DNA of 64,000 bases from an uncultured virus (IMG/VR IMGVR_UViG_3300045927_000049) (lineage: Duplodnaviria > Heunggongvirae > Uroviricota > Caudoviricetes), in IMG/VR virus record IMGVR_UViG_3300045927_000049. One strand, 5' to 3'. Made by a program: the position numbers and the translations under genes. Position 1 is the first letter of the stretch, and each line of letters starts with the position of its first letter. The notes beneath the pieces were generated by a model that saw only the letters and a program-made list of their open reading frames with translations, made no database searches and was not told the origin of the DNA. Shown here in pieces: positions 30,673-48,005 of the stretch.

Positions 30673-30679
30673 GAAATGA

Positions 30680-30702
30680 AAAGGGCCGCATGAGCGGCCC
30701 TT
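30680..30702 (-). terminator. Hairpin/terminator upstream of terL
   Basis: AAGGGCCGC/GCGGCCCTT stem followed by TTTCATTT on the minus strand. Confidence 0.5.
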
Positions 30703-30767
30703 CCATAGGGACGTAGGGGTTTATGGTACGCCTACAGGGTACAGCCCCTTGACGGGGATGGGAAGTG

Positions 30768-31112
30768 CTAGACGTTCTCGACGTTGGCGTCCTCTTTTTC
30801 GATGACCTCCTTGGTCATCGGTTCGCCTTGGCTCACCTCGTCACCGGCACCGACATTCTGCTGCGGCTCGCGCTTGTCGATGAAGACATAGCCGGTGTTG
30901 GTGGGAATTTCCTCGTCGGTAAAACCAGCCTGTCTGTACTGGCGTTCGGCATTGCGCCGCTTCTGGAGTGCCGCAACATCCTCCTCGCCGTCATAGGTGC
31001 GGGAAATCTGAGCGCCTACATCGTAATATTCGGCATCTGCCGCTTCACGGGCTTCGTTCTCAGCCTGCATCTGTTCATCGACACTGCCGGGTCCGGCTCT
31101 GGTCGTGGCCAT
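30768..31112 (-). CDS. Acidic hypothetical protein
   Basis: 114-aa ORF abutting upstream gene. Confidence 0.65.
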   Translation of the reverse strand: MATTRAGPGSVDEQMQAENEAREAADAEYYDVGAQISRTYDGEEDVAALQKRRNAERQYRQAGFTDEEIPTNTGYVFIDKREPQQNVGAGDEVSQGEPMTKEVIEKEDANVENV

Positions 31113-31397
31113 TTACTTTCCTTTCTTTCCAGACTTCCCTTCGGAAGCCTTATCAACTGCGGAGACGCCCTCGGCATCGGCATCCTTCGGCTCGCCCTGA
31201 TTGCCCTTACCCGGCTTGTCTTCGGGAGGGCCGCGACCCTCTTCCTCGCCGCCCTCGCCCTTCAGTGCGGCGGCGACCTTTGTCCATAAATCGGCATCGG
31301 TCAGCATGTTGCGGCTGTTGACTGTCGGGTTGGCGCTGGCATTGACGAAAAGCTGCGCGACACGCTTGCCAATCTCTTCATTCTGCGGGTTGGCCAT
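31113..31397 (-). CDS. Hypothetical protein
   Basis: 94-aa ORF with GAGG RBS. Confidence 0.65.
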   Translation of the reverse strand: MANPQNEEIGKRVAQLFVNASANPTVNSRNMLTDADLWTKVAAALKGEGGEEEGRGPPEDKPGKGNQGEPKDADAEGVSAVDKASEGKSGKKGK

Positions 31398-31881
31398 TGG
31401 TTGGTTCCTCTTCGTTTTCAGGCAGGAAGGTGAAGGTCTTCTGGTCCGTCTGATAGCTGCCCTGCTGCACCCAGACCGGGAATGACCCTGCGACTTCGGC
31501 AGTCGATGGCTTGACGGTCGTCCTTAACTGGTCGCTGCTGATGAAGGTCGTTGGTTCAATACCGCCGTTGAAATAGATAATGCTCGTCTCGGTGAATTTG
31601 TTGCCATTGACGTTCATTTCCACATCGGCAGAACCAATTCTGGCGCTCGACGGATTGATACTATTAAGCACCGGCTCCTCGCCCGGTTCCGGGTCGGGCG
31701 GCAGCGGTGGCTGCGGCGTGTAACCGGGGGGCCATGGCAGGCCATTCTGGAGATAGACGCGGCGCTGGTTGTTGGCCTTGATGATGTTGGCGACATTGGC
31801 CTCGCCATCAAAGGTCTGGGTGGTTTCGCCAAAGCGCGGGTCACCCGGCGTTATCGGCGGCATGCTCTCGTTCTCTGCCAT
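31378..31881 (-). CDS. IPT/TIG (Ig-like) domain protein
   Basis: PVLNSINPSSA...VNGNKFTETSIIYFNG...TTFISSDQL...FTF. Confidence 0.75.
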   Translation of the reverse strand: MAENESMPPITPGDPRFGETTQTFDGEANVANIIKANNQRRVYLQNGLPWPPGYTPQPPLPPDPEPGEEPVLNSINPSSARIGSADVEMNVNGNKFTETSIIYFNGGIEPTTFISSDQLRTTVKPSTAEVAGSFPVWVQQGSYQTDQKTFTFLPENEEEPTNGQPAE

Positions 31882-32167
31882 TCTCGTCCTCCATGAGGGT
31901 GAAAGGAAGCACGGCGGTCACATGGTCGCCGGTCTTGACCTTGACTTCGATGGTCACCGGCTCGCCATGCCACCATGCCGGATCGAAGGGTGCCGACAGC
32001 AAGTCCTGACCCAGCATGCCGCTGGCCTGCGGTTCGCCATCGAACAGCACTTGGCTCTGCATGGTGAAGCCCATGCCCCTGACGCCGAGCACGAATGCGC
32101 CATCGGTGGTCTTGGCGGTATTCGGTTCCAGCTTGAGCAGTTCCGGTGAAGACAGGGTGGCTGTCAT
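31841..32167 (-). CDS. IPT/TIG-like domain protein
   Basis: PELLKLEPNTA...VRGMGFTMQSQVLFDG...LPFTL. Confidence 0.65.
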   Translation of the reverse strand: MTATLSSPELLKLEPNTAKTTDGAFVLGVRGMGFTMQSQVLFDGEPQASGMLGQDLLSAPFDPAWWHGEPVTIEVKVKTGDHVTAVLPFTLMEDENGREREHAADNAG

Positions 32168-32175
32168 GGCTCCTC

Positions 32176-32388
32176 CTATTGCAGCTTCGGCATATCGACC
32201 CCGGTACTGACACCGATCAGGTCGAGCAGCAACAGCACGACGACAATCGCCACCACAACGATAAGGACGATCTTGACGATCCGTTGCGGCGGTTCAGGGA
32301 TGAGATTGTCCACAACGTAGACGGCCACGTAATAAAGAATGCCGATGACCAGCAGCCAGACAATCAGGCTGACGAGAGCGCCAATCAT
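32176..32388 (-). CDS. Small two-TM membrane protein (holin candidate)
   Basis: Two hydrophobic helices separated by IPEPPQR. Confidence 0.65.
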   Translation of the reverse strand: MIGALVSLIVWLLVIGILYYVAVYVVDNLIPEPPQRIVKIVLIVVVAIVVVLLLLDLIGVSTGVDMPKLQ

Positions 32389-32588
32389 GATGCTTTCTCC
32401 TCATAGATTGCTGCCCTGACGGCGGCATCCTTGGCTTCCAGCAGCTTACGAAGAGCAACGGTGCGTTCCGGATTGCGCGGCAGGGTTTCCATGATCGTTG
32501 CAGCCAGTTTGCCAAACGGCTGCGATACCTCCTGAAGATGCTGTGGCAGATGGTGCCAAGCAAAGAACTGAAGGATCGGTTCGCTCAA
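32385..32588 (-). CDS. Small helical-hairpin protein (possible Acb2/Tad1-like fold)
   Basis: TTG start after GGAGGG; LQFFAWHHLPQHLQEVSQPF...ERTVALRKLLEAKDAAVRA. Confidence 0.7.
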   Translation of the reverse strand: MSEPILQFFAWHHLPQHLQEVSQPFGKLAATIMETLPRNPERTVALRKLLEAKDAAVRAAIYEEKAS

Positions 32589-32785
32589 TGAACCCTCCAT
32601 AAACGAAGGGGATCGCGGAGGAGCCAACCCCGACACGATCCCCAACCTTCAACCGCCTGAAAGGAGCGGTTGCGGTGAAGCTTACCACGCTCAAGGAGAG
32701 GGAGGAAAGCCGGGGCGGACAAACCTCCCCCTCAGTGGCCTCCTGTGAAACTGCTGTTCGGGCACATCACTCAGGCTCGTCCAGT

Positions 32786-33319
32786 CTATTTATTCTTCCC
32801 TTTGGGTCCACCGCCTTTGCCGGGGTTGTCGGGGTCTTTCCCTCCACCGGGCTGGTTCCCGTGTCCCTTGTCTGCGTCTTCAGACCCTGATGGTGGGCCA
32901 TTGCTTCCGCCATTGTTACCGGGCGGGCCTTGGGGTCCGGTCGGTCCTTGAGGTCCGGCTGGCCCCTGCGGGCCGGGTGGACCCATTCCCCCGGTTCCTC
33001 CCTGTCCTCCGCTTGGCCCAGAAGGACCAGCAGGACCAGACCCACCACCACCACTATTGCCGCCAGAACCAGAATTGCCAGAATTTCCACTGTTGCCGCT
33101 CTCCTGCGCCGTTGCCTGTTGCTGGCTGTTGTAGACCCTGCATAGCTGGATGGTGTTGACGCCCTTCTGCCTGAGATAGCGGCACTGCTCCTCGGAGAAG
33201 AACAGCCCCGGTCGGTGCATGTTGGTGCAGCCGGAAAGCAGCCACAGGATGATCAGCATCCACAGGACGATGCCAATCGGCAGCGCAATTGCTATGCCGC
33301 GCACGAAGTGGATGCTCAC
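32786..33319 (-). CDS. Lipoprotein with Gly/Ser- and collagen-like tail (o-spanin candidate)
   Basis: GTG start by GTGA overlap; hydrophobic signal ending in LLSGC lipobox; GPQGP repeats. Confidence 0.6.
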   Translation of the reverse strand: MSIHFVRGIAIALPIGIVLWMLIILWLLSGCTNMHRPGLFFSEEQCRYLRQKGVNTIQLCRVYNSQQQATAQESGNSGNSGNSGSGGNSGGGGSGPAGPSGPSGGQGGTGGMGPPGPQGPAGPQGPTGPQGPPGNNGGSNGPPSGSEDADKGHGNQPGGGKDPDNPGKGGGPKGKNK

Positions 33320-33519
33320 TCCCGGCGCTTCTTTTGGGTCTTCGTCTGCGGGCATATCCCCCTCGTATCGATACCAACCTGCTTCATGACGCGGCACTGG
33401 TCCGCCGTGAATTTCGGCGCATCGGCCTTACTGACCGACATCAGGAAGATCAGGCTTGCCATTGCCGCTATCCAGCATGCGGTCGGCAATGAGTTTGAGG
33501 CTTTCGCAATAAGAGGCAA
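33316..33519 (-). CDS. Small secreted two-Cys protein
   Basis: Signal-like segment ending SVSKA, then FTADQCRVMKQVGIDTRGIC; start uncertain (33519 TTG or 33462 ATG). Confidence 0.5.
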   Translation of the reverse strand: MPLIAKASNSLPTACWIAAMASLIFLMSVSKADAPKFTADQCRVMKQVGIDTRGICPQTKTQKKRRE

Positions 33520-33862
33520 CTTCTTCCAGTGTCGGTTCATGCTGGAGAACAACGCTGACGAACCATCTGTCCGCTCCCTGAAAAGCAAAACCCGAAGAGA
33601 CGCCCCACTGATCCGGCCCTCCCCTTTGTTTGACATGGCGCATGACGCATCCCGATTGCTGATTGGAGAACTCCTCGTACTCGCTCATGAAACGGTTCAT
33701 CAGTTTCTCATCGTTCAGCACCCGCCAGACGGCATAGGTCGGGATGCCGATGACAACCAAGAGCGCGATGATCAATACGTTCTGAAGGTTCAGCCCCTTG
33801 ATGATATTGGCGACGTTAGCGATGCGCCCCTCTGGTGGCGGCGGTTGCGGGGGAACGGTCAT
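33428..33862 (-). CDS. Single-TM membrane protein (i-spanin candidate)
   Basis: N-terminal TM NVLIIALLVVIGIPTYAVW, two Cys in soluble part; in lysis region. Confidence 0.6.
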   Translation of the reverse strand: MTVPPQPPPPEGRIANVANIIKGLNLQNVLIIALLVVIGIPTYAVWRVLNDEKLMNRFMSEYEEFSNQQSGCVMRHVKQRGGPDQWGVSSGFAFQGADRWFVSVVLQHEPTLEEVASYCESLKLIADRMLDSGNGKPDLPDVGQ

Positions 33863-34062
33863 TCGATCTTCTCAATCAGTCCCTCGCGCACCGCGTCATC
33901 GAAGTTCATGTGCCACTCGTAGATGGCTTCCTCACTGATCCGGACCAGCGCCTGCGCCAGCCGGTAGACCTCCTGCTTCTGGTGCGAGACGAACACCACA
34001 TGGGTTCCCTTGGGAACGAGGATGTCCTTGGTGGTGCGGTACCTGTTGCGGTTGGCGCTCAT
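33859..34062 (-). CDS. Hypothetical protein
   Basis: 67 aa, ATGA-coupled on both sides. Confidence 0.6.
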   Translation of the reverse strand: MSANRNRYRTTKDILVPKGTHVVFVSHQKQEVYRLAQALVRISEEAIYEWHMNFDDAVREGLIEKIE

Positions 34063-34145
34063 TGCATCAGCCACCACATCAGGCCGAGGATGGCGATGAT
34101 GAGTGTGATGTAGATGACGGCCCATTCGGCATCGTGGCGGTTCAC
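34059..34145 (-). CDS. 28-aa single-TM peptide
   Basis: Hand-translated MNRHDAEWAVIYITLIIAILGLMWWLMQ; GTGA and ATGA overlaps on both sides. Confidence 0.6.
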   Translation of the reverse strand: MNRHDAEWAVIYITLIIAILGLMWWLMQ

Positions 34146-34870
34146 GCGATCTGTTCCCCGTTGAGGATGACGGTGACCTTGCCGGTTGTCGTTATTGTCA
34201 CCACCGGGACATCGGTTGGTGGAACCGGTTCAGGGGAAGGCTCGGTCCACGAGGTTTCGAAGGCTTCAAGGAATTTGACGTGGTAGCCCTTGATCAGATT
34301 GCCGATATTGACGCCACCCGACCAAGTGGGAACCTTGGTCTTGTCGCCGTTGACGATCTCCCGCGCCCCGAAGCTGTCGTTCTTGGTGTCGCTGAAATAG
34401 CGCGGCAAGTTCTGCACCTTGCCGTTGCCGTCCTTGCGGAACCACCCTTCGTACATGCCGCGCATCAAGACCCTTGCACTGATGGTCGCGTCGAGTGCCC
34501 TTTCGGGATGGAGATAGAGATCGTCACCACCTGTAAGGGCAAGCTGTGATGTAGCAAACTTGTAGTTGTCCGCCCACGTAAGCTGGATATCCCCCCTGCC
34601 ATAATAAAGCAGGCCGGTGGTCGGGTCCGGTTCACCGTAGGGCTGTCCCTTGCCCTTGCCGTACTCTTCGATGGGCCACATGGTGGCGCTGGTTTCGTGG
34701 TACGAGGTGGCGAAGCAGTAGGAGATATAACGGAGGTCGGTCTTCGGCGGCACACGTTCCTCGTATGCCCCCATCTTGAAGTTCATCCCGTCCACCTGTT
34801 GCTGGGTCATGTGCCCATGAAACAGGCTCTCGCGGACATGGTTAAAGAAGACAGTGCGGTCGAAAGGCAT
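34142..34870 (-). CDS. Endolysin, glycoside hydrolase family 19-like
   Basis: ATSYHETS, PIEEYG, YYGRGDIQLTWADNY, AREIVNG. Confidence 0.88.
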   Translation of the reverse strand: MPFDRTVFFNHVRESLFHGHMTQQQVDGMNFKMGAYEERVPPKTDLRYISYCFATSYHETSATMWPIEEYGKGKGQPYGEPDPTTGLLYYGRGDIQLTWADNYKFATSQLALTGGDDLYLHPERALDATISARVLMRGMYEGWFRKDGNGKVQNLPRYFSDTKNDSFGAREIVNGDKTKVPTWSGGVNIGNLIKGYHVKFLEAFETSWTEPSPEPVPPTDVPVVTITTTGKVTVILNGEQIA

Positions 34871-34908
34871 TGAACCCTCCCCGCTCTCTCCACGGGGAGG
34901 ATTATGCC

Positions 34909-35136
34909 TTACCGGCGTGAACCCTGAACAGAGGTGCCGCGCGACGTGCCGTGGGCCTTTTCGATCAGCCCCATTGAGGCAAGCGTCTCGATCATTGCCG
35001 AAATCGATCCCTTGGAAGAGATGCCCAAACCAATGGCGATCTCCCTGAAGGTCGGGTTATGCCCATGCATCTCCTCGAATTTGTTGATGAAGTCGAGAAA
35101 CTCCTGTTGCCGCTCTGATGGTCTGGCTGAAGCCAT
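34909..35136 (-). CDS. LexA-type winged-helix DNA-binding protein (no peptidase domain)
   Basis: SERQQEFLDFI...GHNPTFREIAIGLGISSKGS...L..MGLI. Confidence 0.8.
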   Translation of the reverse strand: MASARPSERQQEFLDFINKFEEMHGHNPTFREIAIGLGISSKGSISAMIETLASMGLIEKAHGTSRGTSVQGSRR

Positions 35137-35147
35137 CTCCGTTCTCC

Positions 35148-35363
35148 TCACCTCCATTGTTCGCGTTTCCATTTGATGCATGCTTGCAGCACCTTGATGT
35201 TCTGCTCGTGCTGGCTCCCATAGAGAAGGCCATGGCTGCGGCCATCTCCATGGATCATAACGATCCGCGCGTCGATCTTCGGGTAGACATGGATCGCCTG
35301 CCATGGATAGAGGCAACGGATCAGCTTCCGGTATTCCTTAACCAGCGCCGGTATCTCGTCCAT
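35148..35363 (-). CDS. Hypothetical protein
   Basis: 71-aa ORF in tightly packed operon. Confidence 0.5.
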   Translation of the reverse strand: MDEIPALVKEYRKLIRCLYPWQAIHVYPKIDARIVMIHGDGRSHGLLYGSQHEQNIKVLQACIKWKREQWR

Positions 35364-35583
35364 CGTCGCTCACATTGAACTCCACGGTTTCCGGCACCCC
35401 GTCATCCAGCGTCACCAGTTGGGTGGGAGAAAAGATATGCAGAATGCCGTCGTCGTTCTCGACCACATACCTGATCTGTCCCTTCACCTTCCTGAAGACG
35501 GAGACGATGTAGCCCTGAAACACATAGTCGCCCCCGGTCTTGATGACCCGATCCCCAACAACCAACTGCTTCTTCCTACCCAT
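35338..35583 (-). CDS. Small SH3-like phage protein
   Basis: VGDRVIKTGGDYVFQGYIVSVF...RYVVENDDGILHIFSPTQL. Confidence 0.7.
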   Translation of the reverse strand: MGRKKQLVVGDRVIKTGGDYVFQGYIVSVFRKVKGQIRYVVENDDGILHIFSPTQLVTLDDGVPETVEFNVSDDGRDTGAG

Positions 35584-35600
35584 GATTGCCTCTCTGAACT

Positions 35601-35843
35601 TCACTCGGTATCCCCACGTCCGGCTGGCCACAGCTTGGCCGGAACTCCCGGCCTGTCATCTGACGAATGCGCGTATGCCTGCTCCTCCAGCATGAGGATG
35701 GCATCCTCCAGAAAGGCTTTGGTCACGGTGGTCCATCTGCCGATCTGATCCTGATACAAAATCTCTATCGTCTTGCAGCGCATGGTCTGGTCATGCGTAC
35801 CGCGCAACGCCTTCAGCTTTTCGATCTTCTCTCTTGCGTTCAT
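35601..35843 (-). CDS. Hypothetical protein
   Basis: 80-aa ORF with GGAGAGGGAG RBS. Confidence 0.55.
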   Translation of the reverse strand: MNAREKIEKLKALRGTHDQTMRCKTIEILYQDQIGRWTTVTKAFLEDAILMLEEQAYAHSSDDRPGVPAKLWPAGRGDTE

Positions 35844-35923
35844 CTCCCTCTCCGTTTCATCCCGTCAATCACCATCCATACCCCGATCCCTTGCAGGATG
35901 AGGATTATAATCCCAAGCACCAT
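35840..35923 (-). CDS. 27-aa hydrophobic peptide
   Basis: Hand-translated MVLGIIILILQGIGVWMVIDGMKRRGR, ATGA-coupled to the next gene. Confidence 0.45.
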   Translation of the reverse strand: MVLGIIILILQGIGVWMVIDGMKRRGR

Positions 35924-36001
35924 TTCTTTACCCCTATATAGGACGGAAATCGTCCGGCTGACAGGGTAGCCCCGGTGCCGGAATGGATCAACCGGAACGG
36001 T

Positions 36002-36298
36002 TTATAAATGCGCCGCTTTTCTGAGGAGAAGATTTATCTTCGCCTGCCAGCCCATGCCGCTTTTGCGGAAATGTTCGAGGATATCGTTATCCAGCCAGAT
36101 TGTGACGCGGCTCTTGCGAGATGAGTGGAAGCGTCTGTCGGCCTTTGCAGGATTTTTCGGAATATCGACGTTTTCGACTTTATTTTGCACAGGCTCCGGC
36201 AAATCCGTTTCCTCTTCCCATGGCTGCTTTTCGATCTGCCGAATTTCCGATTTTTTTTGCAGAAAAATTTTTGGTTGGTATTGCCTCGACAGGCTCAT
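36002..36298 (-). CDS. BrnA-like antitoxin / ribbon-helix-helix protein
   Basis: KSRVTIWLDNDILEHFRKSGMGWQAKINLLLR; start after GGAGGG RBS. Confidence 0.8.
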   Translation of the reverse strand: MSLSRQYQPKIFLQKKSEIRQIEKQPWEEETDLPEPVQNKVENVDIPKNPAKADRRFHSSRKSRVTIWLDNDILEHFRKSGMGWQAKINLLLRKAAHL

Positions 36299-36309
36299 GT
36301 TATTTCCCT

Positions 36310-36800
36310 CCGGAATTGCTGTACATACGTACTGTACGTACAGGATGTATATACATACTGTATGATACAGGACGGACAGTACGTACTGTATCAGACTGTA
36401 CGGGATTTGTGAAATTTTGGATCGGGTGTCCGGGTTAGTATGTATCGCGTGACGCACACGCGCCTGCACGCGCGGGGGCTACGTATGGGTGGGGGGTAGT
36501 ACCCCCCACCATGCGCACATACTACATGTGGGGTCCATGCCCTACGACCCTGTGTCCTGATTATCCAATGAAATCAATGGGTTAGTGTACATCTAAGTGA
36601 TTGTAGTGATAGCGAACTGCACTCGAAGAGTGCACAGATTACAGTGTCACCCCATTGTTGTTGTCTCATTCTCTCTCTTACATCTTGATGTAAGAGAACC
36701 AGTGCTATCCCCTTATCCCCTCCTCTCACCATGTACCCTCAGTACCCTTAAGGGACTGAGGTGTGTGTGGTGATTGGCCTTCCATTGTCTTGGTGCCGAC
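36310..36800. other. Non-coding palindrome-rich tract beside terS (candidate packaging site or genome end)
   Basis: TACGTAC repeats, GGTGGGGGGTA/TACCCCCCACC palindrome, IHF consensus at 36572-36584, several hairpins. Confidence 0.45.
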
Positions 36801-36810
36801 AGTCATCTCG

Positions 36811-37395
36811 CTACTCGACATCTTCGATGTCTCCGTTGCTCTTTCCGGGCGAAACCTCTTGGGCATCAGGAAGAACCCTTGGTTCTGGATGTGAAACATG
36901 TTCGATGGTTTCATGCCGAAAGAGTTCGCGAAGTTTGCTTCGCAATTCCAGTTCCACTTCCTCCGGCCTTCTCTCCGTCCTGTCTTCGACAGAGCGAACC
37001 TCTCGAAACATCGAAACCAGATCGATTTTGCCTAAGGCAATCAATGCGGCGATCCGTTCCGATGGCTTCGCGTCTTCTCTCCGGCTTTCTTTCATCAAGC
37101 CGGAGAACACGTGCCGACGAATGGCCACGGCATCCCGATGCATAGCCTTCTCCTGCTCCGTAAGGAGCATTTCCACCCTATGTTTGATCTTGTCCTGCTT
37201 CATCAGCTTGGATGCCGAGACATTGACCGTCGATGACTTACCGCCCGCACTGTAAGTAGCGCGGTAAGCTGCCGAGAGCGTCTCTCCCCGAGCCACCAAT
37301 TGCGCGAAAGCTTCCTGCCTTGGTGTGAGATCGGAGGCCAGTCTGGTCGGCAAACCAAGGCTTTGTCGTAAACTGTTTTGCGGCATAACGGTCAC
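36811..37395 (-). CDS. terS: Terminase small subunit
   Basis: LTPRQEAFAQLVARGETLSAAYRATY...ASKLMKQDKIKHRV...RIAALIALGK. Confidence 0.8.
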   Translation of the reverse strand: MTVMPQNSLRQSLGLPTRLASDLTPRQEAFAQLVARGETLSAAYRATYSAGGKSSTVNVSASKLMKQDKIKHRVEMLLTEQEKAMHRDAVAIRRHVFSGLMKESRREDAKPSERIAALIALGKIDLVSMFREVRSVEDRTERRPEEVELELRSKLRELFRHETIEHVSHPEPRVLPDAQEVSPGKSNGDIEDVE

Positions 37396-37587
37396 CGTGT
37401 CCTAAACCCTATGGGGGTTTAGAAATTCTAGTCAGAACCCCGATGATTTGCCAAGTGGTCCGGCTCCAATACCCAAGGGGATTGGAGCGTCTGCGGGGGC
37501 GCATCATGCCCGCATCATGACGCGAGTTTTCTTCACGCCTGTTTCCCTACGCATTATGCGCAGGAGAAATCGCGCATGGAAAAAGGC

Positions 37588-37616
37588 TTGCCATTTGTCG
37601 TCCGGTTTGGGATTGT
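37588..37616 (+). promoter_or_regulatory. Sigma70-type early promoter
   Basis: TTGCCA-17 nt-GATTGT upstream of the structured leader. Confidence 0.5.
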
Positions 37617-37619
37617 TTG

Positions 37620-37935
37620 GGGGTCGAAAGCAGGATTGCTCCGACAGCGGAAAGCCGGATGGCTCCCGCCAAAAAGCATCTCTCCGGAGAAACCGGGGGC
37701 CGCAAGCACCGCTGTGAAGCGAAGCTTGGTGAAGGCAGAACAAATCCGGACAGTTTTGCGGCGATCATGGATAACGAAGTGATCGAAAGTCAGCGAAGCT
37801 GGTCGTGGCAAAGAGCAATCTTGTGATGCTTTGCCGCCCACACTCCTCCTCACGATTGCTGCGGGATCAAGCTGCAAACTCAGCAAAAGCTGAAAGGCGA
37901 AGCTTGGTCCTTCAACAATCCTGAAAGGATTACGT
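37620..37935 (+). ncRNA. Putative ~310-nt structured RNA / 5' leader, family unknown
   Basis: At least 10 helices identified by eye, G-U pairs consistent with + strand, possible pseudoknot and loop-loop contact. Confidence 0.6.
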
Positions 37936-37936
37936 T

Positions 37937-38542
37937 ATGACGAAAACTGCCAAAACCGTTGCCAAGTCGGAAGTCTCCTCCCGTGAGGAGCTGCTCGCCA
38001 GCGTCTCACAGTTTGAATTTCAAACTTGTGAGATCGTCGGCGGACGGAATTTCCCCATTGGGGAGAAATTCGACTGCATCAAGGTCGGGGTTTCCGGCTA
38101 CGGCAAGCCCTACACGGTCATCTCCGTCAACGGAGAAGACCGGTTCTGCGATCCGAAGAACCTCAAGGTTCTTAAGCCGATGACCGAAGCCAAGATCGCC
38201 GCCGCTAAAGCGGCGCTGGAAGAGGCAAAAGAGGCAACCCTGATCGTCGGCGGAACCATCAAGAATGAGAGTGAGAAAGCAGTTCTCATCTCTCATCATG
38301 GCTGGTTCAAGCCGAAGTGGTTTCCCAAGTCTCTGGTCACCAAGATTGGTGACCATGAAGACGGCGAGCAGAACCTCTATGAGGTTCCTCGTTGGAAAAT
38401 CCATGCCGATCATGGTCCGGCTGGCGTGAAGGCTCTCGCGGCACTCCAAGATGGCTATGAAGCCATGTTGGAGCCGGAAGAAAAGCCGGAACCCAAGGTC
38501 GTCGTCCGTACCGGTAAGTATACCGGTAAGGTCAAGAAGTGA
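37937..38542 (+). CDS. Early hypothetical protein
   Basis: 201 aa, GAAAGGA RBS, ESEKAVLI...WFPKS motif. Confidence 0.8.
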   Translation: MTKTAKTVAKSEVSSREELLASVSQFEFQTCEIVGGRNFPIGEKFDCIKVGVSGYGKPYTVISVNGEDRFCDPKNLKVLKPMTEAKIAAAKAALEEAKEATLIVGGTIKNESEKAVLISHHGWFKPKWFPKSLVTKIGDHEDGEQNLYEVPRWKIHADHGPAGVKALAALQDGYEAMLEPEEKPEPKVVVRTGKYTGKVKK

Positions 38543-38620
38543 TCTCTGAAAAATCGCATGACCTCCCCTCCGAAAGGAGGGGAGAGCGGGCGATTTTGCC
38601 CTGAATGAGGAGCCAACAAA

Positions 38621-38797
38621 ATGCCATTTGATCCCAATGATCTCGCTGAAATGCTCTTGGTAAAAGAGCACTTCATCGATGAGCGAAACTTCGCCATGTC
38701 GATGCGGGATTGGCCGAAAGTTTCTGTCATCCGACAGAAACTCAAGCACGTTGAAAACCGGATTGCTTCGATCCGGTTTCAGCAAAAGACCGCCTGA
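38621..38797 (+). CDS. 58-aa cassette ORF 1
   Basis: Hand-translated MPFDPNDLAEMLLVKEHFIDERNFAMSMRDWPKV...; GAGGAG RBS; stop abuts repeat 2. Confidence 0.75.
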   Translation: MPFDPNDLAEMLLVKEHFIDERNFAMSMRDWPKVSVIRQKLKHVENRIASIRFQQKTA

Positions 38798-38863
38798 GAA
38801 ATTGCATGGGATGGGGTCCACTGGACCCCATTACGGGCAATTTCGCCCTTTTGAGGAGCCAAA

Positions 38864-39118
38864 ATGCAAGTTCTCACGAAAGCACAGAAACTCGCTTTGA
38901 AGCGAGTTTTTGATCGGACGCCTCTTTTCGTCCTTTGGGACGGAAAGTGCTTCATGCCGACTTCCACCGAAGGGTGGAATGCTCACAAGAGACTGGATCA
39001 ACCGACAATGACCTACCGGTCATTTCGGTACACCGCAGTCACCAGCTTTGGGACGTTAATCGTCCCATGGTGTGGAATGTGGCTGGCCATCGAAACCGAT
39101 GGCTACACCCACTCTTAG
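38864..39118 (+). CDS. 84-aa cassette ORF 2
   Basis: Ends VPWCGMWLAIETDGYTHS; RBS supplied by repeat 2. Confidence 0.8.
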   Translation: MQVLTKAQKLALKRVFDRTPLFVLWDGKCFMPTSTEGWNAHKRLDQPTMTYRSFRYTAVTSFGTLIVPWCGMWLAIETDGYTHS

Positions 39119-39189
39119 AGATCGCATGATATCTCCTCCGACTTGTCGGAGGGGATAGCGGGCAATCTCGCCCTATTGAGGAGCCAAAA

Positions 39190-39525
39190 ATGGTTGGAAT
39201 GCTGAACATCGGTACAGTGTCCCATGGGACACTGCGTCCGCAAGATTTGCTCCGTAGGTTTTCCCAAACCTACGAGCAATACTTCAGCGATGAAACGGAT
39301 TACAATCCGTTTCTTTACATGGCAGCTAACTTGTTAGCTGCCACTCTGGATGATCTCGAAGGAGATCATGTTGCCGACCACATCTATGAGCATGTCGATT
39401 ATACAATCGACAAGCTTATAGAGAAGCTGGAAGGCTTGGCTTCCCGTCATAACTGTTACTTCGGAACCACCGAAGGTGACGGTTCGGATTTCGGCTTCTG
39501 GCCGAATGAAGGCGGCGAAGCTTAG
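39190..39525 (+). CDS. 111-aa acidic cassette ORF 3
   Basis: GTVSHGTLRPQDLL...YFGTTEGDGSDFGFW. Confidence 0.8.
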   Translation: MVGMLNIGTVSHGTLRPQDLLRRFSQTYEQYFSDETDYNPFLYMAANLLAATLDDLEGDHVADHIYEHVDYTIDKLIEKLEGLASRHNCYFGTTEGDGSDFGFWPNEGGEA

Positions 39526-39597
39526 GAATTGCATGACTTCCCCACTGAGAAATCAGTGGGGAATGCGGGCAATTCCGCCCTGAATTGAGGAGCCAAG

Positions 39598-39819
39598 ATG
39601 ACTGAAAGAGCACAACTTTTCGCCCAGAGACTTCGTGATCTGGACGAATGCATTGCTGAAAGCAAGGCATCGGAACACTACGATCCGAAAAACGACTACT
39701 GGACCCATCTCAAAGAGATGGAAATTCAGGCTTTCGCCAAAGGCGATGGTGTCGTTTGGCGGGTCAATGACCGGCCTTACATCGTCTTCGATACCATCGA
39801 TAGCCGATGGTATTCCTGA
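39598..39819 (+). CDS. 73-aa cassette ORF 4
   Basis: RBS supplied by repeat 4; stop abuts repeat 5. Confidence 0.75.
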   Translation: MTERAQLFAQRLRDLDECIAESKASEHYDPKNDYWTHLKEMEIQAFAKGDGVVWRVNDRPYIVFDTIDSRWYS

Positions 39820-39887
39820 GAAATTGCATGGGATGCCCTCTCTCAGAGAGGGCATTACGGGCAATTTCGCCCTTTGAGGAGCCAAAC

Positions 39888-40067
39888 ATGATCCTGCTTT
39901 GGATATCGACATATATGTCGATCTTCACGATGGGAATTCTTGCCATCATTGTGGGGACTTCCCCACAATTCGGTTGGCCGGAATATTCCGCCACCATTCT
40001 TGCGATACTTTTCGGTATCGGCGCAGCAACGACGTTGCTGGAAATTGGTCGGAGGGAACGTCGATGA
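39888..40067 (+). CDS. Two-TM cassette ORF 5
   Basis: MILLWISTY..., two hydrophobic helices, basic tail. Confidence 0.7.
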   Translation: MILLWISTYMSIFTMGILAIIVGTSPQFGWPEYSATILAILFGIGAATTLLEIGRRERR

Positions 40068-40147
40068 TCTACATTCTTGTTCCAGTGATAGCTTTGCTAT
40101 CGTGGTACATCGTTTATCTCGAAACAACGAAAGGAGATCGCAAATGA
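40064..40147 (+). CDS. 27-aa single-TM peptide
   Basis: MIYILVPVIALLSWYIVYLETTKGDRK, ATGA-coupled on both sides. Confidence 0.55.
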   Translation: MIYILVPVIALLSWYIVYLETTKGDRK

Positions 40148-40449
40148 AATGTCTCCACTTCGTTGGTTTCACCAACGAAGAACAAATCAGGAAGGCTTCC
40201 CGAATATTCGGGGAGCCTCATTTCATACATCCCAAATGGGATGTCAGAGCCGAGCAAGAATTGGATGTAGACGATGTAATCGTCTACGCCAATGGAACAC
40301 CGAGGAGAGCGGAAGAACGTGAGTTCTTCCTGAGTGTGGGCGGCAAGCAAGGGGGTGGGCGCATGATGCGCCTGCCCCCTTTTTTTTGCTCAAAATTCAG
40401 CTACTATCGCAGACATGCGCTACATACCCGGATACGAAGAACGCTATAG
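40144..40449 (+). CDS. Hypothetical protein
   Basis: LHFVGF...RIFGEPHFIHPKWDVRA; AAGGAG RBS; frame reads through a terminator. Confidence 0.65.
   Translation: MKCLHFVGFTNEEQIRKASRIFGEPHFIHPKWDVRAEQELDVDDVIVYANGTPRRAEEREFFLSVGGKQGGGRMMRLPPFFCSKFSYYRRHALHTRIRRTL
40350..40388 (+). terminator. Intrinsic terminator ending the cassette operon
   Basis: GGGGGTGGGCGCA/TGCGCCTGCCCCC stem plus T8. Confidence 0.75.
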
Positions 40450-40762
40450 AATAGATCAAAACGGCAATGTTTTCTGTAATCATAAGAATAGATTTCTGAA
40501 ACCAACCCTGCACCCTTCAGGGTATCTATTTGTGTCTCTAGCAAAAGGGACAAAAAATTATCCATTGCGAAAGCAATACAAGATCAATTACTTAGTCGCA
40601 CTTACTTATATCGGACCAAGGCCAAAGGGCTTGGTCTGTTGCCACAATGATGGGAACAAACTCAACAATCACCTCTCGAATATCAGATGGGACACCCAAA
40701 AATCGAACATCCACGATGCAATCGTGGCCGGTACGTTTACCGGGCGACCACGTAAGCACTAG
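40415..40762 (+). CDS. NUMOD4-HNH homing endonuclease
   Basis: IPGYEERYRIDQNGNV, GYLFVSL, CHNDGNKLNNHLSNIRWDTQKSN; AT-rich. Confidence 0.88.
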   Translation: MRYIPGYEERYRIDQNGNVFCNHKNRFLKPTLHPSGYLFVSLAKGTKNYPLRKQYKINYLVALTYIGPRPKGLVCCHNDGNKLNNHLSNIRWDTQKSNIHDAIVAGTFTGRPRKH

Positions 40763-41240
40763 TTTTTTCGCGCACGCGCGAGGGGGGGCAGCAGACACGC
40801 GATCCCGGTACTTAATCGTCCGGTCCCAAAAAAGCGATTTTCCAAAAGACCAGCTAAATCTTTGATCTGAAAGAATGTCGTGGACACACTAGAGGGGTGG
40901 CAAAATTCAAGAGGTATTTTTGCCCCCCTCTCAAATGTCAAATCCTACCCATACCCCCCATAGGTAGGAAAAAACTGGCGAAATGCCTGTCAAAGCGTTG
41001 ATCTTAAAGATGCGGACGCTGTGGACGGTTCAATCCGTACACATTCTGGCTGGCCAAAAAGCAGAAAGGCTCTCGCAACATTGGCCGAAGCCAGTCACGG
41101 AGCCTTTCGCTACTGGCGTTTCAACTCACCCCTCACAGGGTTTCGCTTACTTTGTCAGCTAAGTGGTTATAGGGCGCATGATGCCAATTGGCAATGCCAA
41201 AATAGCAGACATGCGATCCCTTTAGCACGGTCTTGTAAAG

Positions 41241-41388
41241 ACACATGTTTGGCTGTCCCATAACGTAAGAATGTTTGCGTTTAACCAATTACCAAAAGTG
41301 GTAGTAACTTATTGATATCATTGATGATATTAACGAAAACCTTATCACACGCAAGAATGTTTAAGTTATGGGACGAACAAACATGTTT
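41241..41388. repeat. 40-bp imperfect inverted repeat with central IHF consensus
   Basis: 41241-41280 vs 41349-41388 match at 31/40 positions; TAACTTATTGATA at 41305-41317. Confidence 0.85.
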
Positions 41389-41496
41389 CCTTACGCGCCC
41401 GTACTAACGTTCATCCCTTGATATCTGAGTGAAATCCGGTGGCAAAAATCGTCCGGTGCCGGTAAGGTTTTGGTTCGATCAGGGAGACGCACATTT

Positions 41497-42453
41497 ATGT
41501 CAAACAAGCATGCACCAGACCCGTTGGTCTATCTGCCGCCAGAAGACGCAGAACGCTTCATGATCCTTATCATGACGCATCTGGTCGATTGGCCGCTCAA
41601 AACCGCTGAAAGTTTCAGAAATGCAGTTCTGGGAAACGGTGCCATTGCCGTCAATCCCCTGCTTGGCATCGAAAACGACAACGATGTCAGCTTCCTCAAA
41701 TCATCCCTTAAGAAGGTGATTGCCGAAGGCCGAATGATCGATTTCGGCTTCATTCCCAATGAACTCTACAAGACTGAAAGTCTGCGCTCCCGTCGCATGT
41801 TTGAAAGCGGCGATTTCCAGCATCCCTACGACACTTGGCTGGGCATCGCATCGTGGGAAGGCGGTTCATGCGGCTACTATTTCACACCGCATCCCGCTGA
41901 CCCAAGCATGATCCTGTGCATCGAACTCTATGGGGTATCGGTGCCGCAAGTCGGTGACGCCATCCTCATCTACGATATCATTTCCATAGAAGTGAAAGGC
42001 ATCGGCCAAACGCTGGTCCATCCGGCACCGATGAAGCATGTCCAAGGATACAGCACCTATTTTGGCCAGACTGAGGAAGAGGCTGGAGCGGCACGTGGCG
42101 CAAATACGCTGGACCCAATGGTCACCATGCTTCGTATCTTGGCTGATGCATCGATCCCAATTGTGGATCGACCGGCACCGGTCAAGCTGAACAAACACAG
42201 AGTGAAGAAAGGGCTGTGGGAAATCCCTGCCCATACCGCTGTTCTGACCAAAGATTACGTCACCGCTTTTAGAGCCGCACAGGCTGGCATGCATGAAAAA
42301 GGTACGCATGCATCACCCGTGGCGCATTGGCGTAGAGCACATAAGAGAACGTTGGCCGATGGACGCATTGTCCCAGTTCGCTCGTCCAAGGTGAATTGGA
42401 GGGAGACGGAGGAACTGCACCGTCTGTTCTACCGAGTACCGGAAAAGAAGTGA
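41497..42453 (+). CDS. Hypothetical protein with C-terminal His/Arg motif
   Basis: GTHASPVAHWRRAHKRTLADGRIVPVR. Confidence 0.8.
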   Translation: MSNKHAPDPLVYLPPEDAERFMILIMTHLVDWPLKTAESFRNAVLGNGAIAVNPLLGIENDNDVSFLKSSLKKVIAEGRMIDFGFIPNELYKTESLRSRRMFESGDFQHPYDTWLGIASWEGGSCGYYFTPHPADPSMILCIELYGVSVPQVGDAILIYDIISIEVKGIGQTLVHPAPMKHVQGYSTYFGQTEEEAGAARGANTLDPMVTMLRILADASIPIVDRPAPVKLNKHRVKKGLWEIPAHTAVLTKDYVTAFRAAQAGMHEKGTHASPVAHWRRAHKRTLADGRIVPVRSSKVNWRETEELHRLFYRVPEKK

Positions 42454-42710
42454 TGTACGGTACAGACATCGAGAAATGCATCGCTTGCGGTGACAATTCG
42501 GACGTGATCGACAGCCGTCCGGTCCCGGCAACAGGTTTCAGAAGAAGACGGCGGCAATGTCCGCATTGCAAGCGCCGCTGGAGCACCTTCGAAGTGTCGG
42601 AAGAAACCTACAGGGTAATCCTTGCAACCGAGAAGCTTGAGCAACTGGCAGACACGCTGGAGGAACAGGCCAAATCACTAAGGCAACTGACTAAAGGAGA
42701 AACCGAATGA
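42453..42710 (+). CDS. NrdR-like zinc-ribbon protein
   Basis: CIACG...VIDSRP...RRRRQCPHCKRRWSTFE; no ATP-cone. Confidence 0.8.
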   Translation: MYGTDIEKCIACGDNSDVIDSRPVPATGFRRRRRQCPHCKRRWSTFEVSEETYRVILATEKLEQLADTLEEQAKSLRQLTKGETE

Positions 42711-43009
42711 GAAAGAACGAAAAGACAGCCTTGACGCCTGATGAGGTGTTGCGTGTAGCCTATGCAGACATCATTAGAGATATCGATCAGGACGATCTCG
42801 CCGCCCTGCTCAACGTGAATTCGGGGCGCGTGGCCGAGGCTGTCATCGCCATACGTTGGGCCATGCATAACCACAAGCTGATCTACAGGCACATCCAGAA
42901 ACAGAAGAACGGCAGAAAGAAACTGGCAGTCGCGGAGGTCGTTGAAAACGGGCAGGGCACAATGAAATTCATAGAGGATGGCGACGGTCTGAGAATAACA
43001 CATGGGTAG
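42707..43009 (+). CDS. Putative HTH protein
   Basis: QDDLAALLNVNSGRVAEAV. Confidence 0.7.
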   Translation: MRKNEKTALTPDEVLRVAYADIIRDIDQDDLAALLNVNSGRVAEAVIAIRWAMHNHKLIYRHIQKQKNGRKKLAVAEVVENGQGTMKFIEDGDGLRITHG

Positions 43010-43295
43010 CAGGATTGGGCGAGGGAAAAAGGTCAAAATGAAAGACCGCATCAAATGCAGGCTGATGGATGAAATCCTGAAAGGTAACAATATCTACATT
43101 GCCGAGACGGTACTTAGTGAGAAGTCCTTCCTTCTGTATGCCAACAATGACCAGCACACCGAGCCTTGTGACGATCTGTTTATGTGGAAGGGCTATGCCA
43201 TGCCATTGGTGTCGCAGCCCGTTACGCTCAAGGATGCCTTGGCGATAGTCGATACACACTGGGACAGCAGGATAAAGATAAATGACATGGCGTGA
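43002..43295 (+). CDS. Hypothetical protein
   Basis: Overlap-coupled ORF. Confidence 0.5.
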   Translation: MGSRIGRGKKVKMKDRIKCRLMDEILKGNNIYIAETVLSEKSFLLYANNDQHTEPCDDLFMWKGYAMPLVSQPVTLKDALAIVDTHWDSRIKINDMA

Positions 43296-43710
43296 TCATG
43301 GCATACACGCAAGGCTGCACAAGAACCTCACCGAACTGCTGAAGCGCGGTGAAGTGAACATCACGCTGACCTGTGTTCATATCAACCAGCCTGTCGAGGA
43401 TGAACGCTTCCACGAGGGCATCTGGCAGTATCTGGCGCATGCTGGCGCTTTCGTGACCGGTCAGACTGACAGCGATGAAGCGTCACAGTGTTTCGGGTGC
43501 GAGAAAGACTGGACATGGAAACGTGTCATCCGTGGGTTTGTGCTCATGGAGTTTATCGATGTAAATGGTCAGAGCGCGATGGGTACGGTCACCGGATTGT
43601 GCCCTATATGTTGGGGTAATGAGCAGAGACTGTTGAAGGCATTCGAGCGTGATTTCGGCATCAAGCCGGATCAGATACGACGGGTGCATCACGAAGGGGG
43701 GCACGCCTGA
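43282..43710 (+). CDS. Hypothetical Zn-binding protein
   Basis: CFGC and CPIC pairs. Confidence 0.65.
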   Translation: MTWRDHGIHARLHKNLTELLKRGEVNITLTCVHINQPVEDERFHEGIWQYLAHAGAFVTGQTDSDEASQCFGCEKDWTWKRVIRGFVLMEFIDVNGQSAMGTVTGLCPICWGNEQRLLKAFERDFGIKPDQIRRVHHEGGHA

Positions 43711-43952
43711 TGATGAAATTCATGACGAACAGTGAAGCTAGATGCATCGTTGAGGATATGGGCGACCGTATCCTCACCACGGAACAGGTTCTGGAGATAC
43801 TCCCGGTCAGCAAATCAACGCTGTGGAGACTGGAGAAACAGGGCATTTTCCCAAGGCACTTCAAGGTCGGTTCCCGCAAGAACGGTTGGCTGGAAAGCGA
43901 TGTCCAAAGCTGGATCGATAATGTCCAAGAGGGCAACATCACCGTCAAATGA
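43710..43952 (+). CDS. AlpA-family regulator / excisionase-like
   Basis: ILTTEQVLEILPVSKSTLWRLEKQGIFP...GWLESDVQSWI. Confidence 0.85.
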   Translation: MMKFMTNSEARCIVEDMGDRILTTEQVLEILPVSKSTLWRLEKQGIFPRHFKVGSRKNGWLESDVQSWIDNVQEGNITVK

Positions 43953-44314
43953 GGAACCTCAATCTGCTGAACGCCTACCGCTGTATCGGACCAGATATCA
44001 TCAAATATTTCGGCAGCACAGGAGATCACACATGTGGGTTCTTCGTGGTGCCGTCGCCCATCGACAAGGGCGAGATGAAGGTCATGGCATCGTCAGACTA
44101 CGATTGGGACCATGTTTCGGTATCGCGTCCCAATCGATGCCCAAACTGGACAGAAATGGAACATGTCCGACATCTGTTCTTCAAGGATGACGAAACTGTC
44201 ATGCAACTGCATGTGCCAGTGGTTGACCACATTTCGGTACACCCGAACTGTCTCCACATGTGGCGACCGCAAAAGCAGGAAATACCAAGACCACCTTCGA
44301 TCTTGGTGGCTTAG
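43949..44314 (+). CDS. Conserved phage protein
   Basis: WDHVSVSRPNRCPNWTEM...LFF...MQLH...HPNCLHMWRP. Confidence 0.8.
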   Translation: MRNLNLLNAYRCIGPDIIKYFGSTGDHTCGFFVVPSPIDKGEMKVMASSDYDWDHVSVSRPNRCPNWTEMEHVRHLFFKDDETVMQLHVPVVDHISVHPNCLHMWRPQKQEIPRPPSILVA

Positions 44315-44322
44315 GGGTAGAT

Positions 44323-44646
44323 ATGGCAAAGGGTAGGCCGCTCCGCTTCATATCGGGGAACTACATTGATCGCGTCAACGATGCGGTGTTTGTCGAAATA
44401 GGCGAAACCACCGTCTATTTCGCTGACCGCAAGGTGATCGCGATGTACGCCCACGATGCGCTTTATCGCGTCAATGCGCTCGACAGCGGCATCATGTACA
44501 AACGTGTGCGGAGCGCCATGCTGCGACACAAGCCACGCAAGGTGCATGAGATGAAGCGTGAAGACCTGAATGCAATGGTCGAGGCTGCGATCATGACCAT
44601 GGCGTCCAAGCTGGTGGATGAAAAGCTGGGGCTGGAAACCGCATGA
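44323..44646 (+). CDS. Hypothetical protein (similar to 45346-45699)
   Basis: VEIGETTVYF...REDLNAMV. Confidence 0.7.
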   Translation: MAKGRPLRFISGNYIDRVNDAVFVEIGETTVYFADRKVIAMYAHDALYRVNALDSGIMYKRVRSAMLRHKPRKVHEMKREDLNAMVEAAIMTMASKLVDEKLGLETA

Positions 44647-45353
44647 GCGAGATCACTTTTGCCTGTGAGCCGGTGGTGTTTGGGTCCATTGCCGAACCGG
44701 TCCCGGCCAAGAAGATCATCGAAGACTGGTTCCGCAAGCTGCCGATGGACCTTCCGGAATACAACATCCTTGAGAACTTCGGCAGGACGGTCAAAGCCTG
44801 CCCGCCCTTCTTGGATGCCATGACGCTGGGCTACATGTTTCTGGTGCCCGCCGACTTCAAGATAGAGATCACCGGCAACGGCACCCACTTCAACGCCTAT
44901 TGGCGCTATCCGGAACCCTATATCGACGGGCATCCACCGAGTTCCATCACCGGACATCCCAAGCATGGCAAGATCATCGTCAAGGTGTTCACCATGTGGG
45001 GCATCAAGACCAAGCCGGGATGGTCCACGCTGATCTTCCCGCCAATCAATCGTGCCGAACTGCCTCTAGAGGCAATGGCCGGAGTGCTGGACAGCGACCG
45101 GATGCACGATGTCCTGACCATTCCATGCTTCTGTAATCTTCCCGATGGTCTGCATTTCATTCGCAAGGGCACGCCGCTGGCACAGGTGCTGCCTTTCAAG
45201 CGGGAGGAACTGAGTATGGTGGCACGGGGAGAGACACCGGAAGAAAAGCTTCTGCGGGAGAACCACAGGCGTCTGATGATGTCCGAGGTCGGCTCCTACC
45301 AGCGCAAAATCCGGCATAAAGGCTACGACGACAAAGACGTGGGGCATGATTGA
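44643..45353 (+). CDS. DUF6065-like / dUTPase-fold protein
   Basis: KACPPFLDAMTLGY, WGIKTKPGWSTL, GVLDSD, KGTPLAQVLPFKRE. Confidence 0.7.
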   Translation: MSEITFACEPVVFGSIAEPVPAKKIIEDWFRKLPMDLPEYNILENFGRTVKACPPFLDAMTLGYMFLVPADFKIEITGNGTHFNAYWRYPEPYIDGHPPSSITGHPKHGKIIVKVFTMWGIKTKPGWSTLIFPPINRAELPLEAMAGVLDSDRMHDVLTIPCFCNLPDGLHFIRKGTPLAQVLPFKREELSMVARGETPEEKLLRENHRRLMMSEVGSYQRKIRHKGYDDKDVGHD

Positions 45354-45740: not shown

Positions 45741-45768
45741 TTGACAGCCCAGCCGAACCGGATATGAT
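45741..45768 (+). promoter_or_regulatory. Sigma70-type promoter
   Basis: TTGACA-16 nt-TATGAT. Confidence 0.65.
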
Positions 45769-45825
45769 TTGGGCCGGACGACAAAAAACCGGTCCGACTA
45801 TAAAGAAACGTTTCAGGAGAAACAA

Positions 45826-46917: not shown

Positions 46918-46997
46918 TACTGCGGTTTCCGGTCCTGTTTCGGCGGGACCGGTTTCCGGAATATCAACGAAGGGTAGCAAGAAGTTAGGAGAAACAA

Positions 46998-47873: not shown

Positions 47874-47880
47874 ACTCTGT

Positions 47881-47903
47881 GAGGGGGAGCGATCCTCCCC
47901 CTT
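47881..47903 (+). terminator. GC hairpin (possible terminator)
   Basis: AGGGGGAG/CTCCCCCT stem right after stop; weak U tract. Confidence 0.4.
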
Positions 47904-47938
47904 ACACCTTCACTCTGAGCCGGACGATTTCCGGCATA

Positions 47939-47967
47939 TTGACCGGAGCCGCTGGCGGCGGTATGGT
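47939..47967 (+). promoter_or_regulatory. Sigma70-type promoter
   Basis: TTGACC-17 nt-TATGGT flanked by CGGACGAT motifs. Confidence 0.6.
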
Positions 47968-48005
47968 CGGACGATAAAAATCAAGCCCTACAGGAGAAAC
48001 TCAGC

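Follow-up and report, generated by a model that had tools for sequence, protein, structure and literature searches.

Structured RNAs of some 300 bases and 15 helices are rare, and those that have been described tend towards sophisticated functions. Most riboswitch aptamers are well below this size, and RNase III processing hairpins are known from the T7 early region. Among the closest described systems is the leader of the lambda PL operon, where a long structured RNA of about 200 bases, made up of nutL and the RNase III-sensitive N-leader, separates the first early gene from the early promoter. The product of that gene, N, is small and basic. According to PMC5725501, which cites Wilson 1997 and 2002, translation of N is repressed by factors bound about 200 bases upstream, and the intervening RNA is highly structured. 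Another comparison is offered by OLE, GOLLD, ROOL, HEARO and raiA, which are free-standing, multi-helix covarying RNAs of several hundred bases. Among them are phage-associated families (10.1101/2024.12.08.627333).

Here we describe a leader RNA from the window, the whole 64,000-nucleotide stretch of uncultured virus DNA that was analysed. The window covers all or most of a tailed phage genome, and its DNA recurs in soil metagenome runs. A minus-strand gene array (about 3.5-37.4 kb), which includes portal, TerL and endolysin, ends with the small-terminase gene, terS (36811-37395). A plus-strand array begins at 37937 with ORF1 (37937-38542, plus strand), which encodes 201 amino acids. The leader RNA (37620-37936, plus strand) sits in the 541-base gap between these divergent genes and extends from about the putative transcription start to the base before the ORF1 ATG at 37937. 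A promoter-like site just upstream (37588-37616, plus strand) consists of TTGCCA at 37588-37593, a 17-base spacer and GATTGT at 37611-37616. An earlier note on this DNA had read it as a promoter. The hexamers are present as claimed, but the site is absent from the list of a consensus promoter scan, whose criteria the second hexamer fails, and it is weak by the sigma-70 consensus. In the alignments, the -35 hexamer and the spacer motif that follows it are kept in the related loci L003 and L008, and the -10 hexamer differs in L008. Judging from these letters, transcription would begin at this site, with a start near 37620.

The layout of promoter, long structured leader, first gene and then a terminator or hairpin recalls that of lambda. 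The RNA occupies the same position, on the transcribed strand between the putative early promoter and the first gene, in all four lineages described below. The two systems differ in that there is no similarity of sequence or model, the present RNA is larger with many more helices, and no boxA or boxB was recognised by eye. The first genes differ as well, ORF1 being a protein of 201 amino acids with two predicted beta-barrels that does not resemble N. The leader RNA stands at the very head of the early programme of a phage from a large and hardly studied group, the podovirus-like phages. Should it prove to be a sensor or a control RNA that binds protein, it would reveal how early expression is timed in these phages and offer a compact RNA-protein pair to work on. 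Even as no more than an elaborate 5' UTR, it would remain a clean new RNA family, suitable for inclusion in Rfam.

Relatives of ORF1 form 18 protein clusters, down to 57% identity. Leader DNA was reached for four lineages only, represented by five sequences. The four lineages, W to Z, are that of the window (W), with identical copies in L001, L002 and G001; that of L003, with an ORF1 70% identical; that of L008 and L009, with ORF1 76% and 75% identical and with aligned leaders that differ only in the apical loop of helix Pe; and that of L010, which is truncated at its 5' side and whose ORF1 is 81% identical. G001 is a virus record of 57.5 kb, near-identical to the window, and carries the leader stretch at 100% identity. 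In each of these lineages the element is found between terS and the ORF1 homologue, with the RNA always preceding ORF1 and one copy per genome, always at the same place. The gap between terS and ORF1 aligns as invariant islands that are split by stretches varying in both sequence and length.

One test was not fitted to the structure: a fixed 15-helix model was laid over a MAFFT alignment, and those 46 pairs were scored that fell in the same columns in at least four of the five sequences. Among these, 95.7% of the cells are paired, compared with 85.1 ± 1.4% in shuffles, none of 500 being as high. Double-sided changes affect 17 pairs, as against 8.2 ± 1.9 in shuffles (again 0 of 500). When the partners are slid by one to three columns, pairing drops to 27-39%, with 0-4 double-changed pairs. 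The 3' domain gives the same picture when taken alone (17 pairs, 97.1% paired, 5 double-changed; 1 of 500 shuffles as high). RNAalifold run on the plain MAFFT alignment finds 70 pairs, 28 of them with a compensatory change. In a structure-fitted alignment, which leans towards the structure, 275 of 279 cells are paired, and the 15 helices comprise 77 pair columns, of which 32 are compensatory, 6 half-compensatory and 39 invariant. The lineages are too few for a statistic of the R-scape type.

It is this comparison of sequences, and not folding energy, that decides for a real conserved RNA. The plus strand does fold better than its shuffles (-122.4 kcal/mol against -101.8 ± 5.2 in 100 shuffles; z = -3.99; none as good), and homologues behave similarly (L008, z = -3.90; L003, z = -2.40, with 2 of 100 shuffles as good). 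The reverse strand, however, reaches z = -3.89. As both strands fold nearly equally well, the energy shows neither strand nor function, only DNA rich in inverted repeats. The strand is indicated by 29 G-U cells among the conserved pairs, which would be A-C mismatches if read on the other strand, and by the alifold energies (-67.5 for plus, -52.2 for minus). The preference of the G-U pairs for the plus strand, which had been claimed from the window alone, is thereby borne out. On these alignments, the stretch 37620-37936 is a genuine structured RNA of the plus strand, about 310 bases long and conserved.

The RNA belongs to an undescribed family. A search of the whole window with the 4227 families of Rfam 15 gave no match at gathering thresholds; the families covered include riboswitches, T-box, pRNA, 6S, tmRNA, RNase P, OLE, GOLLD, ROOL, HEARO, raiA and ribozymes. 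At E up to 10, the region 37300-38100 yields four weak matches of 10.6-15.2 bits against cut-offs of 40-54, and the only one on the plus strand within conserved helices is ALIL (37548-37667, 10.6 bits). ARAGORN found no tRNA or tmRNA. Besides matching none of the models of OLE, GOLLD, ROOL, HEARO and raiA, the leader RNA is smaller than these RNAs and, unlike them, is fixed to the 5' end of one gene, with four lineages known. What the earlier note had proposed at its core, a large undescribed structured RNA that runs from the promoter-like site to the first rightward gene and diverges from terS, is supported by covariation in four lineages, the lack of an Rfam family, the G-U cells that favour the plus strand and the lack of a kept reading frame. 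A new family is thereby added to a known general kind of RNA. The tertiary contacts proposed in the note do not hold.

The conserved fold, all on the plus strand, begins with P0 (37623-37645), a two-part hairpin of 4 bp, an AA bulge, 4 bp and a tetraloop. Four of its nine pair columns are compensatory among W, X and Y, Z being truncated here. Pa (37649-37666) has a GG/CC clamp, a stem of 4-5 bp and a GGA-type loop, with three of seven columns compensatory and no mismatch. Pb (37684-37696) is a CCGG/CCGG hairpin with a variable loop; its stem is invariant and hence without covariation evidence. Pc (37701-37731) places a variable stem of 4-7 bp on an invariant CGC/GUG base (37701-37703/37729-37731), and in the unfitted alignment four of its eight pairs are double-changed and 97.5% of the cells paired. 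In the window, and there only, Pc carries a 16-base apical insertion with a small hairpin. A small hairpin with a UGUGAA-type loop is found at the tip of Pc in the window and between Pa and Pb in L008 and L010, and such a modular move hints at a functional loop.

The central part follows. The alignments show J3 (37732-37750) as a conserved single-stranded joiner that reads AAGG, four or five bases, CAAA, three bases, GGA. Pd (37751-37801) is a long hairpin with a base of 7-9 bp (37751-37759/37793-37801), eight of whose nine columns are compensatory, with two mismatched cells. Further up are a 3-bp GGY/GUC step, which L003 lacks, an internal loop with a conserved GAAA, a bulged A and an apical stem that displays a UAAC/UUAC loop motif; the Pd helices are 86-100% paired in the unfitted test. 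Pe (37807-37835) has a covarying base of 5 bp, an invariant irregular stem (AGCA-A-UC/GA-UGCU) and a variable apical loop. It is 100% paired in the unfitted alignment, where two of its pairs are double-changed and seven invariant. J5 (37836-37853) is a variable joiner that has a pyrimidine stretch in each lineage.

The 3' domain, Pf (37854-37920), consists of Pfa, 7 bp (37854-37860/37914-37920), Pfb, 10-12 bp (37863-37872/37902-37911), and the apical Pg (37880-37893), in which four of five columns are compensatory. The internal loops of Pf are not conserved between the W and X lineages and the Y and Z lineages, which argues against Pf itself being a ligand pocket. A last hairpin (37917-37931) is invariant, and its 3' arm is the RBS, with AAGGA at 37925-37929. 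Invariant bases are concentrated in the centre of the RNA (J3, the Pd internal loop and Pe) and not in the domain that touches the RBS, a distribution that fits a bound factor better than a simple mask.

The five duplexes and eight hairpins of the earlier note are all complementary where it put them, yet only six of these 13 elements are part of the conserved fold: 37653-37664 (Pa), 37681-37699, 37762-37785 (the Pd apical stem), 37863-37873/37901-37911, 37880-37893 and 37917-37931. The hairpin 37717-37727 shares just its 3' arm with a conserved helix. The other six have no counterpart in L003, L008/L009 or L010. The bases of an 11-bp long-range helix (37631-37641/37813-37823) form the P0 apical stem and the invariant Pe stem, and the other lineages lack such complementarity. 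A pseudoknot (37673-37680/37825-37832) and a kissing pair between GGAT (37657-37660) and ATCC (37744-37747) are specific to the window, their complementarity being missing elsewhere. The helix 37644-37650/37709-37715 depends on the window-only insertion, and the hairpins 37735-37759 and 37790-37802 compete with the covarying base of Pd. GCGAAGC, taken as a mini-hairpin, does occur three times (37719, 37793, 37897), but L003, L008 and L010 lack it at the corresponding positions; the whole window has 20 copies, compared with 11.9 ± 3.3 in shuffles. The pseudoknot, kissing loop, long-range helix and GCGAAGC hairpins are not supported; they are peculiar to the window and conflict with the covarying P0, Pe and Pd base. 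Conversely, five conserved helices had been missed: P0 (37623-37645), the Pc base (37701-37703/37729-37731), the Pd base (37751-37759/37793-37801), Pe (37807-37835) and Pfa (37854-37860/37914-37920).

The only feature of mechanism that can be read directly from the sequences lies at the junction with ORF1. Pfa covaries, with a G-C pair replaced by A-U in L008 and the last pair flipped from U-A to A-U in the window. Its 3' strand shares the four bases AAUC with the 5' arm of the RBS hairpin, so Pfa and the RBS hairpin are mutually exclusive. The best fold with Pfa and the best with the RBS hairpin are only 1.4-2.0 kcal/mol apart in all four lineages. Partition functions of the full-length leaders give the GGA of the RBS a probability of about 0 of being unpaired in every lineage, its partner being either the RBS hairpin arm or the J5 pyrimidine run. 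For AAGGA as a whole, the unpaired probability averages 0.26-0.37 with the native leaders; with the upstream sequence shuffled it averages 0.40-0.52, and 5, 12, 10 and 14 of 60 shuffles are at or below the native value. By this control, burial of the RBS is weakly beyond chance, suggestive and not established. The hairpin that had been said to bury the RBS is present and invariant, but the covarying Pfa is in competition with it, and, as it never varies, it has no covariation support of its own. A three-way switch in which the invariant 5' strand of Pe pairs with the 5' strand of Pfa was also considered and rejected: the pairing is perfect in the window and has an A-C mismatch in L008/L009, where Pfa is compensated.

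We consider it most likely, with a probability of about one in two, that the leader acts in cis on the ORF1 message, as the 5' leader of the first early mRNA of an uncultured soil phage. The last domain ends one base before the RBS region. With Pfa formed, the local RBS hairpin cannot form; with Pfa opened, the hairpin could close over the RBS. A factor bound at J3, the Pd internal loop and Pe might set the balance or the fate of the transcript, candidates being RNase III, a small ligand or a protein, which might be ORF1. Both the switching and the effector we infer. As in translational riboswitches and RNA thermometers, access to the RBS is tied to a conserved helix through alternative pairing: bases that can pair next to the RBS are partly shared with the 3' strand of the covarying basal helix, and two exclusive folds are nearly isoenergetic. 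Unlike in translational riboswitches, no Rfam riboswitch model matches and the domain that touches the RBS has non-conserved internal loops. The RNase III processing hairpins of phage early leaders are another likeness, as stacking of Pfa and Pfb with the J5/RBS pairing would give an irregular helix of some 22-24 bp by the start codon. The case for control in cis is weakened by the shuffled control on RBS burial, the invariance of the RBS hairpin, the non-conserved internal loops of Pf, the small number of lineages, the weak promoter-like site and the sparse metatranscriptome cover, and also because a 300-base RNA of 15 helices far exceeds the need for RBS occlusion.

This excess over RBS occlusion is also among the grounds for a second explanation, possible if doubtful, in which the RNA is functional itself as a stable non-coding RNA or as an RNP with ORF1, either processed from the leader or still attached to it, and serves early host take-over. 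Some 15 helices, invariant joiners and the invariant irregular Pe are more than occlusion of an RBS calls for, and the RNA and ORF1 are always adjacent. The protein itself has no Pfam, annotated PHROG or Atlas family. Its predicted structure (pLDDT 78.6) contains two small SH3/KOW/WYL-like beta-barrels, and such barrels often bind nucleic acid. The best fold matches are to the ssDNA-binding WYL domains of DriD (E = 6e-4, TM = 0.34) and to KOW domains (Z of about 7), the latter list including the OLE-RNA-binding protein OapB at Z = 6.0; these are at a level that the tools call common (Z under 8). Against an RNA in its own right, there is no terminator or obvious 3' end between it and ORF1, and no trans target is known. 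Nor do RNA contigs single out the leader. Six metatranscriptome runs contain 17-34% of the sequence words, and the four examined have sparse contigs (depth 2-7) over both gene arrays; the bin 37411-37811 is covered to 0, 0.69, 0 and 0 in these.

A bolder proposal combines these elements, and we regard it as rather unlikely. It takes the leader as a new class of ornate phage RNA that, with the beta-barrel ORF1, forms an RNP or a sensor of a ligand or of RNA polymerase and sets the switch from immediate-early to later transcription in a manner unlike nut/N or put.

A processive antitermination element, like lambda nut or HK022 put, appears improbable. Here the leader, alone or with ORF1, would modify RNA polymerase for the read-through of terminators. 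Such terminators can be pointed to: L003 has canonical ones on the same strand at 2003-2026, right after ORF1, and at 2845-2868, 0.8 kb on, and the window has a 9-bp G+C hairpin with no adjacent T-run after ORF1 (38563-38584, plus strand) as well as a terminator at 40349-40381 with same-strand genes beyond it. L008, however, has no plus-strand terminator after ORF1, and downstream promoters, one of them at 45741-45768, explain expression equally well. Known put and nut elements are far smaller than this leader, and no convincing boxA- or boxB-like motif was seen on its plus strand by eye. In favour is the placement between the early promoter, which the leader follows directly, and the first gene, comparable to that of nutL before N (PMC5725501).

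Two further explanations are very improbable. In the one, the leader is a sponge or target of a CsrA/RsmA-type protein through GGA in hairpin loops and in the RBS. GGA-type loops are indeed present in P0 and Pa, and GGA recurs in J3 and the RBS, but under a first-order model the observed and expected counts of GGA are 8/7.0, 9/8.5, 16/10.2 and 13/9.1 (p = 0.41, 0.50, 0.03 and 0.11), unenriched in three of the four lineages, and ANGGA and AGGA are not enriched either. A CsrA sponge is rejected for this reason. In the other, the stretch works as DNA (as an origin, as a pac site or through hairpin promoters made of GCGAAGC mini-hairpins), for which one may cite the adjoining terS, the three GCGAAGC copies and the equal folding scores of the two strands. 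The lack of GCGAAGC at homologous places speaks against it, as do the 29 G-U cells that would be A-C on the other strand and compensatory changes that keep long irregular hairpins, which is typical of RNA. Least probable of all, to the point of being negligible, is a chance fold or a missed small protein gene, because covariation is far above the controls and because the open reading frames of 68, 69 and 110 amino acids that overlap the stretch have no family match and are disrupted by indels whose lengths are not divisible by three. On neither strand does a frame without stops survive across the lineages, so that the region is not coding.

The distribution of the RNA is narrow. A covariance model, R1, covering Pb to Pe (148 positions), finds one copy in the window and gives the known relatives scores of 98-160 bits. 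By TerL, the closest cultured phages (about 50% identity) are the Pelagibacter phages HTVC027P and HTVC023P and phage DSL-LC04; these three and 023Pt_psg01 gave no R1 match at E up to 1. R1 was also run on 711 kb in 77 loci that surround TerL relatives of 53-62% identity, many of the loci being short enough that they may miss the terS side, and found only two junk matches of 8.6 and 6.7 bits. A scan of viral contigs for the Pe motif returned 30 loci, with the RNA in only the four known contigs. Species genomes gave no match to a long RNA pattern and no ORF1 relative, and a search of a phage GenBank collection by DNA gave one 39-base chance match, in a Bacteroides phage, and no near match for 30000-45000. 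As far as seen, the family is confined to the small phage clade that carries ORF1.

A pattern scan of viral contigs for the 3' domain returned the four known contigs and L049, an unrelated provirus fragment. There, at 1001-1068 on the minus strand of the locus, the exact 15-base sequence of the RBS hairpin lies 45 bases after a GCGGGATC motif and upstream of another gene. We do not count L049 as a member of the family, since it is without every other motif and its contig is without a model match; the resemblance is probably due to chance.

The region between terS and the leader has features of its own. A 13-base palindrome, CGCATTATGCGCA, at 37550-37562, precedes the -35 hexamer by about 30 bases and is conserved in all three lineages that reach that far (the window, L003 and L008/L009). 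Upstream of it are two direct GCATCATG repeats (37501-37508 and 37512-37519), of which L003 has three copies and L008/L009 degenerate versions only. The palindrome and the repeats look like regulator binding sites in the region of the divergent terS and early promoters. The minus strand encodes a protein with a LexA-type DNA-binding domain at 34909-35316 and one with a BrnA-type antitoxin domain at 36002-36469, between terS and the lysis and regulator genes. Just upstream of the terS start codon, a hairpin at 37402-37422 lies in the 5' UTR of terS, in minus-strand RNA. It is kept in L003 and L008 with differing stem sequences, and the scan lists the L008 copy as a terminator-like site of the plus strand. 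The hairpin might be a bidirectional terminator or another small structured element.

Within the rightward array, the terminator at 40349-40381 (plus strand) is a very strong intrinsic one, with a 15-bp stem and a T-run. It is followed by an HNH endonuclease gene (40415-40762) and many more genes on the same strand, which therefore need read-through or a new promoter. The promoter scan lists a near-consensus site at 45741-45768. The region 45769-49277 (plus strand) after it, in the early/middle part of the genome, encodes an ATPase (PHROG 1297) and, one gene later, a protein with DUF2201 metallopeptidase-like and VWA-like domains. Finally, at 64 kb the window exceeds G001 (57.5 kb, with a completeness rating of 94%) in length, and its two ends do not repeat one another. 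It may include flanking host DNA or represent a longer phage genome; its first 3 kb are richer in G+C (0.61-0.65).
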